DNA of 8,482 nt from positions 1 through 8,482 of IMG/VR virus record IMGVR_UViG_2703718806_000006; one strand, given 5' to 3'. The position numbers were made by a program. This stretch comes from a virus (Duplodnaviria; Heunggongvirae; Uroviricota; Caudoviricetes). Positions 6,001-8,482 of the stretch are shown piece after piece. Positions within the stretch are counted from its first letter, which is position 1. Each line of letters begins with the position of its first letter.

Positions 6001-8482
6001 TATCTATGTCAAATACACAGAAAATTATTAACACTGAAAAATATAACGAGTGGGTGAAAAATTCTCTGAGCAGATTTTTAAAATTACTGGCGACGAGAAT
6101 GTGGCAAAAAATGAATTAGAACCGTGGACACCTGAAGGAAACGCACCAAATTATTGCTGGTGGGAGGTTGATCCGGTTGATGCTGCAAATGAAGCCATGA
6201 GTTACCACAACGATTAATGTCGGGAGGCCGCCCGAAAGGGCGGTAAGAAATGACTACATTATTCAGAAAAGAATATCCGCAAAAAAGTAGGGCGACAGAA
6301 TTTTTGTTTCACATTCTGTTTATCGTATTGATGATACCGATATCCCCTCTAATTTTTGTCTGGGCAATCGGGAAAATAATTGAGCCAGTTACTGAATTGT
6401 ATACCGACGTTGTATGGGCGTCGTTCAACACACTGCACAATAAAATTAATCCGTATAAGGAAAACTGATATGGCAACTTTGACAAAAAAAGAACGGGCAT
6501 GGTTGAACGAATTACAGGAAGTTCTTGATCGCTGTCCATCACCGAAAAAAATTGGCTTTTACACCATTGGCGATAAAAGCATTTACCTGTATGACCTACG
6601 CCGCATGGATGAAATCATGGAGGCTCTTGATAATCGTTCGTCGATGGATTGGTGTGTTGCTGTTCATGATATGAATGCAGGGTTTGATGAAAAGATTTTG
6701 TTCCCCTCATCAGTTGAAAGCACTGCGGGTTAAGGAGTAACACATGACCACTATTACCAAAGAACGTATTGAATTGTTCATTAAAAACCCGCTTGAAAAC
6801 GGGCTTACCCGTGGTGAACAAATGGAACTGGCACGGATTGCGCTGGCATCGCTGGAAGCAGAGCCGGTTGTGTTCTGGTTTGAAAAATATCAAGAAGGGG
6901 CTACGGCATGACGACTTTTACCAGGGAGCAGTTAATAGCTCACGCAGAGGAGACTATTGAAGCACAGAGACTGTGCATACCGGGCACAATCGACCATGAC
7001 ATCATCCGCACATATAAGATGGATATTGCTGTTCTGGAAATCGCACTGGTATCGCTGGCAGCAGAGCCAGCCGGTAAATTGCATGAATACAAACCAGTGG
7101 GATATCAGCGTCTGGTCGATGAGTTAACCATGCTGGTAAAGCAGTTAACCTGGCAACTGAGGAAAGCGAAGCCAGACTGCAAATTACCGGATAAGGCGAT
7201 GAGTTATCTGGAGCGGAACGGACTGATAAGCGTGGAGGATATTTTACGATGACCTGGTCTGAAGCATTCACAACGGTAGGAATCGCACTGGCGGTGGCGC
7301 TGGTGGTGTATTCGATTTGCCGCTGGGGATAAAAACGGTTTGCGGGAAAAGGAGAGTTAAGTAGAATTGCTGCGGGTGCTTGAGGCTGTTTGCCTCGGGC
7401 ATGCCTCCGTAAGGCAGACAGAGAAAAGCCCCAGTTAACATTATGCGTCTTGCAGGACGCTTAACATTAATCTGAGGCCATATCTATGACTTGCACACTT
7501 AGATTAGCCTCTTATGCGCCGAAAGGCAAGGAGCAGCAGGCTATGAAGCAGCAAAAGGCGATGCTAATCGCCCTGATCGTCATCTGTATTACCGTCGTTG
7601 TAACGGTACTGGTAACGAGGAAAGACCTCTGCGAGGTACGAATCCGAACCGGCCAGACGGAGGTCGCTGTCTTCACAGCTTACGAATCTGAGAAGTAAGA
7701 GACCCGGCGAGGGAGAAATCCCTCGCCACCTCTGATGTGTCAGGCATCCTCAACGCACCCGCACTTACCCCGTTTCGGCAGACTTTGTTTTTTCCTGGCA
7801 TTCTGGTTTACAATTCGCACGTCAGCCTGAACAACTGGCACCTGCTGCGTCACCGGAGAACCCGATGGCGCAACATATAAAATCCCACAATTCTGAAGCC
7901 GTCCCGGCCATTAAGCGGGGGCGGCATTCGCACGTATTTAAAACCGACTGGTACCAGCATCCCCCATGCACTGAAGAACAGGCCGAATGGCTGATTCAGT
8001 GTTACCGCAGGCGCGGATACGAGGTTAAGAAAGCCATCAGCCTCGATTATCGTCACTGGATAATCTCTGTCAGGCTCCCTTATTCCGAACATCCACCGCG
8101 TCCGTCCCGCACATTCCAGCAACGTATCTGGAGGTAACGTGCGGGTATTACTTCGACCTGTTCTGGTGCCGGAACTTGGCCTGGTGGTCCTTAAGCCCGG
8201 ACGCGAATCACTGCCTGTTTTTCATTGCGGCAGGGTGCTGGTGGAGCCGGAACCGAAAAACATGCGCGGTCTGCCGTCCGGAGTCGTTCCTGCCGTTCGC
8301 CAGCCGCTGGCAGAGGATAAAACATTACTGCCATTTTTCAGCGATGAGCGGGTTATTCGTGCAGCAGGTGGTGCAGGTGCACTGTCTGACTGGTTATTAC
8401 GTCACGTGAAATCCTGCCAGTGGCCACACGGCGATTATCATCACAGCGAAACCGTCATTCACCGTTATGGTACCGGCGCGAT

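Follow-up and report, generated by a model that had tools for sequence, protein, structure and literature searches.

Do five small, closely packed genes lying between the replication genes and a hok locus of a lambdoid prophage act together, or do they only share an address? The question arose from an 8,482-nucleotide stretch of viral DNA (IMG/VR record IMGVR_UViG_2703718806_000006, positions 1 to 8,482; hereafter the window), in which an earlier note had described a compact gene block and proposed that it could be a membrane-associated accessory module. The five open reading frames (ORFs) are indeed present, on the plus strand between the replication genes and hok. They comprise gene 1 (6250-6468), which encodes a 72-residue DUF4014 protein; gene 2 (6470-6733), for a soluble acidic protein of 87 residues belonging to the phrog_1714 family; gene 3 (6744-6911), a chimeric ORF of 55 codons; gene 4 (6908-7252), for an all-helical protein of 114 residues; and gene 5 (7249-7332), for a single-helix membrane micropeptide of 27 residues. 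Our analysis shows a block assembled from cassettes that can be exchanged one by one, namely a DUF4014 membrane protein, an 87-residue soluble protein, EaA-type mosaic proteins and a 27-residue membrane peptide. It is probably a recombination-shuffled patch of the hyper-mosaic early accessory region of a lambdoid prophage, of a known kind and made up of catalogued genes.

We examined how often the genes travel together among 5,426 complete E. coli genomes. Gene 1 was found in 1,002 of these, gene 2 in 978, the segment comprising the tail of gene 3 with gene 4 in 568, and the 27-codon ORF in 1,609 (about 30% of the genomes, at 3,060 places and up to 7 per genome), whereas at most 318 carry at least 80% of the block. 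Only one of the 247 matching phage records covers 80% of it. Among 80 IMG/VR contigs with a near-identical gene 2, the next gene is a DUF551-type gene of 289/300 codons in about 31 and the 55- plus 114-codon pair in about 15, with other arrangements in the rest; the complete 55-114-27 arrangement likewise occurs in about 15. Some of the genes also turn up in quite different company. In ArgO145-like Shiga toxin (Stx) phages, gene 1, an HNH endonuclease gene and gene 4 lie in the early-left operon near int, and in the P22-like phage g341c, again in the early-left operon near int, the DUF4014 gene is followed by one for a 114-residue "Truncated P22 EaA protein". The genes of the block therefore assort independently, and either early operon can house them. 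The earlier note had looked to recurrence of the five genes outside a single lineage, as one would for a functional five-gene module retained across diverged genomes; such co-occurrence is essentially absent.

These counts bear directly on the idea of one membrane-associated accessory or anti-phage module, in which the hydrophobic peptides would be the effectors and the soluble proteins their partners. Tight packing on one strand, two hydrophobic products, the adjacency of hok/sok and the roughly 318 genomes with most of the block would all be expected of such a module. However, each gene is two to five times commoner than the block and is found with differing neighbors; none of the five proteins has a match in NCBIfam or in PADLOC-DB 2.0 (0 families at E ≤ 0.1); one member, gene 3, is a recombination scar, as described below; and a lytic early operon, in which no promoter belonging to the block stands out, is ill suited to a defense expressed from the lysogen. 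We consider this explanation highly improbable, and neither the module suggested in the earlier note nor a defense role is borne out.

The internal structure of genes 3 and 4 shows how such a patch is built. Their products had been described as a paralogous pair, on the basis of a common MTT.T.E N-terminus and an A-L-x-S-L-x-A-E-P motif, and had been attributed to a duplication. The homology is real but modest: BLASTP aligns the N-terminal 54 residues at 33% identity (E = 1e-5), the two N-termini match the same four families (phrog_3323, phrog_60, phrog_660 and phrog_5117), and each has the hallmarks of the N-terminal module (N-module) of P22 EaA, namely an MTT.T.E start and a helical stretch ending in IALASL(E/A)AEP. 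The likeness of the 55- and 114-residue proteins is thus that of a common EaA-type N-module of about 45-50 residues, a predicted helical hairpin that ends in IALASLEAEP. A tandem or local duplication, in contrast, was rejected, as each copy has far closer relatives elsewhere. Because residues 1-44 of gene 3 share 86% identity with the P22 EaA N-terminus (NP_059588.1; E = 8e-24), compared with 33% for gene 4, a duplication is unsupported.

The 5' part of gene 3 is 98% identical at the nucleotide level to the 5' ends of DUF551-type genes. Its product carries the UniRef name "Eaa protein" and matches phrog_3323, phrog_60 and phrog_660, as well as phrog_2118 (HNH) at residues 31-54. Gene 4 belongs to phrog_660 (E = 8e-43) and contains a second N-module variant (residues 1-54; 27% identity to the P22 EaA N-module, E = 0.005), followed by a conserved C-terminal module (C-module) ending in ISVEDILR. 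The AlphaFold2 model of the gene 4 protein has a helical hairpin (H6-23 and H30-52) at a predicted local distance difference test score of about 90, and then a low-confidence linker and further helices. Sequence searches of the PDB with this protein returned no meaningful match and a Foldseek search of BFVD returned none; for genes 3 and 4 alike, Pfam gave nothing at E ≤ 1, Ead_Ea22 (PF13935) included. Database proteins contain at least five N-module variants, all ending in (E/R)IALASL(E/A)AEP and there joined to the same C-module, so that the IALASLEAEP motif is itself a mosaic joint. Other combinations also occur: a DUF551 domain is joined to the N-module of gene 4 in one protein (P0186) and to that of gene 3 at another locus (L006), and a 197-residue "Eaa protein" (P0210) consists of the gene 3 N-module, a long middle part and a C-module like that of gene 4.

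Several of the joints can be placed almost to the nucleotide. Gene 3 begins as an N-module (about 6744-6866) and continues, in the same frame, as the final 14 codons of a gene for an HNH endonuclease (about 6867-6911). The 14 residues at its end match, residue for residue, the C-terminus of the ArgO145 HNH endonuclease, whose gene precedes gene 4 there, and the DNA of gene 3 changes from DUF551/EaA-type to HNH-type at a CC(A/G)GTTG microhomology near 6864-6872, from which we conclude that gene 3 is an in-frame junction ORF (EaA::HNH). A repeat search further revealed that the DNA encoding the A-L-x-S-L-x-A-E-P motif forms a 29-nucleotide direct repeat on the plus strand (86% identity, spacing 203 nucleotides), with one copy at 6837-6865 encoding IALASLEAE(P) and the other at 7040-7068 encoding IALVSLAAE(P). 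These two copies are the left and right endpoints of a precise 203-bp deletion in a public contig (L106) whose aligned genes 3 and 4 are identical to the window on both sides, and which as a result carries a 101-codon fusion gene (P0151). The cassette containing gene 1 meets the following gene, which is gene 2 in the window and the HNH gene in ArgO145, just past a common ATGGCA start. Cassettes in this region are thus joined by recombination at short conserved sequences, located either at gene starts or inside genes.

Gene starts deserve attention in this respect. Near-identical first eight codons (M-T/A-T-x-T-K/R-K/E-E) are found in four consecutive genes of the block, in the HNH genes of ArgO145 and g341c, and in genes downstream of gene 2 in other genera. 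A boundary of this kind would act as a recombination joint for in-frame cassette swaps and possibly as a translation-initiation signal too. We put forward tentatively, as a pair, the proposals that these eight codons are a dedicated boundary sequence and that the 27-codon ORF encodes a translated, functional membrane micropeptide; that both should hold is possible. In a looser form, M-[T/A/S]-[T/L]-x-[T/F]-[K/R]-[K/E]-[E/Q], the start is seen in genes 1-4 and in the HNH genes of ArgO145 (L002 5221) and g341c (L008 2082). Neighboring accessory genes do not have an MTTxTKE-like start, and mosaic joints fall just past such starts.

Gene 2 provides a view of the same process across genera. The protein matches phrog_1714 over its full length (residues 1-87 of 87; E = 9.5e-51) and belongs to a fixed-length family, distributed across Enterobacterales, whose members have 87-88 residues and nine invariant positions. 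A profile search of 1.84 billion representatives yielded 218 clusters at 50% identity, nearly all of them stand-alone proteins of 80-90 residues; no informative fusion was found, the 10 longer clusters scanned having no Pfam domain. The fold is confidently predicted and unmatched: Foldseek against BFVD returned one unnamed relative of 93 residues, and a PDB sequence search gave no meaningful match. In Edwardsiella the homolog is located between RecT and int, in the early-left operon; in Klebsiella it follows the replication genes; and in Pectobacterium it belongs to a P2-like prophage. Gene 2 is also present, with E. coli-type neighbors at 98-99% identity, on short contigs (L095, L096 and L102) in metagenome-assembled genomes labeled Segatella copri or Collinsella sp., which is most likely a case of E. 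coli prophage DNA contaminating the bins.

In Edwardsiella, Klebsiella and Raoultella, whose gene 2 homologs are 64-70% identical, a gene of the N-module type begins 9-12 nucleotides past gene 2. It starts MT(T/S/K)x(I/L/F)T(K/R)(E/D), and its downstream motif is IALASxEAEP-like in E. coli and Edwardsiella and takes the looser forms ALAAMDSEP or AVDSEP in Klebsiella and Raoultella. In addition, megablast segments typically span the start of gene 2 into the N-module (query positions 217-608 of 621). The survival of this adjacency across genera would be explained if the 87-residue protein and the N-module of the next gene formed a functional pair, for example a binder and an adaptor domain. However, the gene downstream of gene 2 in the Pectobacterium P2-like prophages is unrelated, and in K. 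spallanzanii and Leclercia the common sequence ends after the first 5-8 codons and an unrelated hydrophobic ORF takes over, a pattern that a recombination boundary fits better than a protein partner. Judged from these alignments, the region reads as a cassette boundary lying just inside the gene downstream of gene 2, and a functional pair appears unlikely.

The conserved and mostly unannotated gene for the 27-residue membrane peptide is the only mildly new item of the block. The peptide has one hydrophobic segment (residues 10-24; Kyte-Doolittle value 2.59). G11 does not vary, nor does the C-terminal I23-C24-R25-W26, and in each of three deep lineages small residues recur along the helix. These lineages (MTWPEAFTTVGI..., MNWPEAFAITGV... 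and MSWPDAIVTLGV...) account for the 15 nucleotide variants, every one of which has 27 codons. Between lineages the synonymous divergence (pS) is 0.6-0.7 and the nonsynonymous divergence (pN) 0.2-0.27, giving a pN/pS of about 0.35, an estimate of selection that is conditional on intactness because the search pattern required an intact ORF. Differences fall mostly at third codon positions (15 of 28, 13 of 25 and 16 of 30), and both flanks are unrelated between lineages. The start codon always overlaps the upstream stop (ATGA), and the GGAGG that precedes it lies inside the last codons of the upstream gene, which ends in either ...PPQEVxQ or ...SVEDILR. From this pattern of substitution the ORF appears to be under purifying selection, and we judge it to be a real gene. 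It is present without annotation in the records of phages 933W and VT1-Sakai and at the three RefSeq loci inspected, and is annotated in a few GenBank records. Clusters at 90% identity that group the peptide with DUF551 proteins were set aside as an artifact, with no common sequence behind the grouping.

It is doubtful, although the notion has some weight, that the 55- and 27-codon ORFs are non-functional, their frames having happened to stay open where recombination joined sequences. That gene 3 arose at such a junction is demonstrable; the 101-codon fusion has lost it with no visible effect, and in two database proteins (P0121 and P0122) a frameshift fuses it to gene 4. As for the 27-codon ORF, a frameshift breaks its frame in phage 689R5, certain copies end at codon 26, another is fused to gene 4 by a frameshift (P0131), and the RefSeq annotations inspected do not call it. 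On the other hand, gene 3 has a strong ribosome-binding site, and the exact protein is encoded on more than 1,000 contigs, a count that mainly reflects clonal spread. The case for chance is harder to make for the 27-codon ORF, whose length is kept across lineages despite high synonymous divergence and unrelated flanks, with a low pN/pS and a third-position bias. The further suggestion that this ORF is only a conserved upstream part of the hok locus was rejected, given its synonymous divergence, its lineage-specific flanks and its occurrence without hok.

Proximity to hok raises another possibility, that the 27-residue peptide, and perhaps also the DUF4014 protein, acts in concert with hok as a membrane-active toxin or exclusion factor and damages or modifies the inner membrane while the phage develops. 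Such a role would suit a single conserved hydrophobic helix with invariant residues and small residues along its length, the position of the ORF directly upstream of hok in many prophages (in 933W it lies between L0139 and hokW), and its copy number within genomes. Nevertheless, in VT1-Sakai it adjoins xis/int without hok; neither peptide matches a toxin family, with no Hok/Gef or other Pfam match at a meaningful E-value for gene 5 and no HOK_GEF match for gene 1; and the only antisense RNA family found with Rfam is sok, which belongs to the hok locus. The ORF is, moreover, translationally coupled to the gene upstream, unlike type I toxins, which are controlled separately, and several copies per genome are tolerated. 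We regard a toxin or exclusion factor as quite improbable. At four IMG/VR loci in other prophages (L011, L027, L029 and L049), the slot before hok is occupied instead by a 59-codon hydrophobic ORF (MKNALQFLFVAF...CIEYWR), and a small membrane peptide just upstream of hok may be a recurring feature.

The second hydrophobic product is that of gene 1, which matches Pfam DUF4014 (PF13198) over residues 1-72 of 72 at 91.5 bits (cut-off 23.2 bits) and also falls in phrog_1832. A basic N-terminus is followed by one long hydrophobic segment (residues 18-44; Kyte-Doolittle value 2.69 for residues 22-40), so that both products described earlier as membrane peptides look the part. Homologs include 933W L0067, epsilon15 gp46 and ES18 gp39; a PDB sequence search found no meaningful match. 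Two functional labels attached to this family were set aside as unsupported. The first, "O-polysaccharide acetyltransferase inhibitor", is used in g341c and takes the form "putative sugar acetyl transferase inhibitor" in an ArgO145 record (KY914478.1); a note in the g341c record traces it to an older name of the epsilon15 protein, which the current epsilon15 record gives as "hypothetical protein". The second comes from PHROGs, "released from the phage upon host infection"; it is also the RefSeq label of the P22 gp20 ejection protein and is implausible for a 72-residue early gene product. Gene 1 and other parts of the block are also found, at 86-92% identity to E. coli lambdoid sequence, in the record of Actinobacillus phage vB_Apl-pPE4 (PP818812.1), a lambdoid content that is unexpected given the stated host.

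Gene 1 also differs from the rest of the block in its leader (6222-6249, plus strand). Close to the ATG there is only AAGAA; a GGGAGG (6222-6227) lies 22 nucleotides upstream, beyond a GC-rich hairpin with a GAAA tetraloop (GCCGCCC-GAAA-GGGCGGT, 6227-6244) that folds at -20.3 kcal/mol (z = -3.4). The hairpin might bring the distant Shine-Dalgarno (SD) sequence near the AUG, or might stabilize the mRNA. The same element precedes the DUF4014 gene in ArgO145, there behind unrelated upstream sequence, and at further loci. In the window and at L002 4966-5000 alike, the hairpin stands between a strong SD-like site (GGGAGG/AGGAGG) and the DUF4014 start, and the arrangement is kept behind differing upstream sequences.

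The remaining genes have good SD sequences: AAGGA 8 nucleotides upstream of gene 2, AAGGAG 6 upstream of gene 3, GAAGGGG 7 upstream of gene 4 and GGAGG 10 upstream of gene 5, the last within the final codons of gene 4. Where the earlier note had assigned strong SDs throughout, good ones are seen for genes 2-5 and not close to the start of gene 1. Similarly, its picture of five genes overlapping by 1-4 nucleotides holds as to tight packing (coding density is about 99%) and not as to overlap: gaps of 1 and 10 nucleotides separate genes 1/2 and 2/3, and overlaps are confined to the 3/4 and 4/5 junctions, with 4 nucleotides (ATGA) each. A consensus scan of the block detected no promoter-like or terminator-like sites above shuffled expectation, and the block accordingly reads as part of one long early transcript. 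We propose that transcription of the genes would have to await induction or infection, when the antiterminated pR operon is read through, and that translation would be coupled at the tight junctions, with the preceding EaA- or DUF551-type gene, whichever it is, supplying the ribosome-binding site of the 27-codon gene from its own conserved C-terminal codons. The two hydrophobic products would insert into the inner membrane. By analogy with lambda Ea22 and other exo-xis genes, the products may act singly, as non-essential modulators of phage development or host physiology, rather than as one machine.

Of studied systems, the exo-xis region of lambda and Stx phages is the closest. Genes of this pool make up the "ea" or exo-xis region when they lie in the early-left operon; here they occupy the nin-equivalent slot of the early-right operon. 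Like the exo-xis region, the block contains small early, non-essential genes of mosaic build, and genes 1, 4 and 5 occur in the early-left accessory region of Stx phages near int and xis; unlike that region, it lies in the early-right operon after the replication genes. In Ea22 of the exo-xis region, the N-terminal part is conserved, the middle varies and the C-terminal domains, DUF551 among them, are interchangeable (PMC10834534). Ea22 favors lysogeny, an effect shown for that protein itself only (PMC7093339). Genes 3 and 4 have the MTT.T.E...IALASLEAEP N-module in place of the MSEINYQALREAAE N-terminus and coiled coil of Ea22, so that only the mosaic logic and some partner domains are common to the two. 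The links to P22 EaA are the N-terminal identity of gene 3 and the truncated EaA protein that directly follows DUF4014 in g341c. However, EaA has 317 residues where gene 3 has only an N-module and an HNH-derived tail, and gene 4 resembles it distantly across the N-module and has a different C-module; no function is given for EaA in the annotations and searches used.

With the nin region of lambda and P22 (ninA-ninH and others) the block has in common its slot, between the replication genes and the RusA and Q antiterminator genes, and its tightly packed small genes with ATGA overlaps. It differs in its proteins, none of which falls in a Nin family in Pfam, PHROGs or NCBIfam; matches of that kind would have counted against the reading in the earlier note. 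That note was right to call the genes uncharacterized, and mistaken in finding no recognizable family, since four of the five belong to one or more: DUF4014 (gene 1), phrog_1714 (gene 2), phrog_3323/60/660 (gene 3) and phrog_660 (gene 4). Lastly, the 27-residue peptide resembles Hok/Gef and other small single-helix inner-membrane proteins in having one hydrophobic helix and a basic C-terminal end and in adjoining hok/sok. It departs from Hok/Gef in having no sequence match, in being coupled to the upstream gene, in having no antisense RNA match of its own and in occurring also without hok.

Four points weigh against the view of the block as a shuffled accessory patch. About 318 E. coli genomes keep most of it together. 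The adjacency of gene 2 and an N-module-type gene at 64-70% identity could mean a functional pair, and not mosaic hitch-hiking alone. Genes 3 and 4 do not match Ead_Ea22 and their N-termini do not align with that of lambda Ea22, which makes the transfer of a "pro-lysogenic" role to them weak. Finally, literature searches on DUF4014, the 27-residue peptide, the 933W locus tags and EaA found nothing relevant, which leaves the functional part of our reading to analogy. A shuffled patch nonetheless remains, in our assessment, the probable explanation.

The window as a whole covers a lambdoid prophage from its immunity genes to the nin part. Its plus-strand genes are, in order, cro-like, YdaT-like, DnaT-domain O-like, lambda P-like, DUF1627, DUF977, the five-gene block and hok/sok; the minus strand carries a helix-turn-helix (HTH) repressor and a PaaA2/ParE toxin-antitoxin pair. 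A prophage of E. coli 2013C-3181 matches the region at 99.9% identity; its RefSeq annotation lists gene 1 as "DUF4014 family protein" and genes 2-4 as hypothetical proteins and leaves the 27-codon ORF without annotation. The hok/sok/mok locus (7374-7698, plus strand) lies outside the block and includes sok (Rfam RF01794, 112.7 bits, 7374-7548) and a Hok/Gef ORF (PF01848, 81 bits, 7486-7698). A hok promoter candidate, TTGCGG-16 nucleotides-TAGAAT (7340-7367), begins 8 nucleotides past the stop of the 27-codon ORF and is the same in five aligned loci; it fails the consensus scan and is thus a candidate by eye only.

Directly upstream of the block, a gene for a 70-residue phrog_4659 protein is split into two ORFs (6006-6119 and 6050-6217) by a 1-nucleotide deletion in an A-run at 6057-6061 (A5 in the window, A6 in E. 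coli 2013C-3181); either the gene is a pseudogene, or the split results from a homopolymer sequencing error. The longest ORFs of the O-like (3233-4276) and P-like (4068-4730) replication genes overlap by about 200 nucleotides, and the true start of the P-like gene is probably a later codon, close to where the O-like gene stops. The minus-strand set at 1379-2378 consists of a 166-residue HTH regulator, a PaaA2 antitoxin (PF21217) and a ParE toxin (PF05016). It occupies the place expected of the prophage repressor, divergent from the cro-like gene, and resembles three-component toxin-antitoxin systems of the PaaR2-PaaA2-ParE2 type.

Together, these observations add little to annotation, since a 99.9% identical RefSeq prophage is already annotated and the families are catalogued. 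They do offer a clean example of the way in which lambdoid accessory genes are put together, with joints that can be read to the nucleotide: an EaA::HNH ORF, and a 29-nucleotide repeat with its natural deletion derivative. They also flag a 27-codon membrane-peptide gene in well-studied Shiga toxin phages, although it is missing from the three RefSeq annotations inspected. Should the 27-residue peptide or the 87-residue protein prove to affect the host, it would join a poorly understood set of genes, expressed early by phages, that tune induction in pathogenic E. coli.

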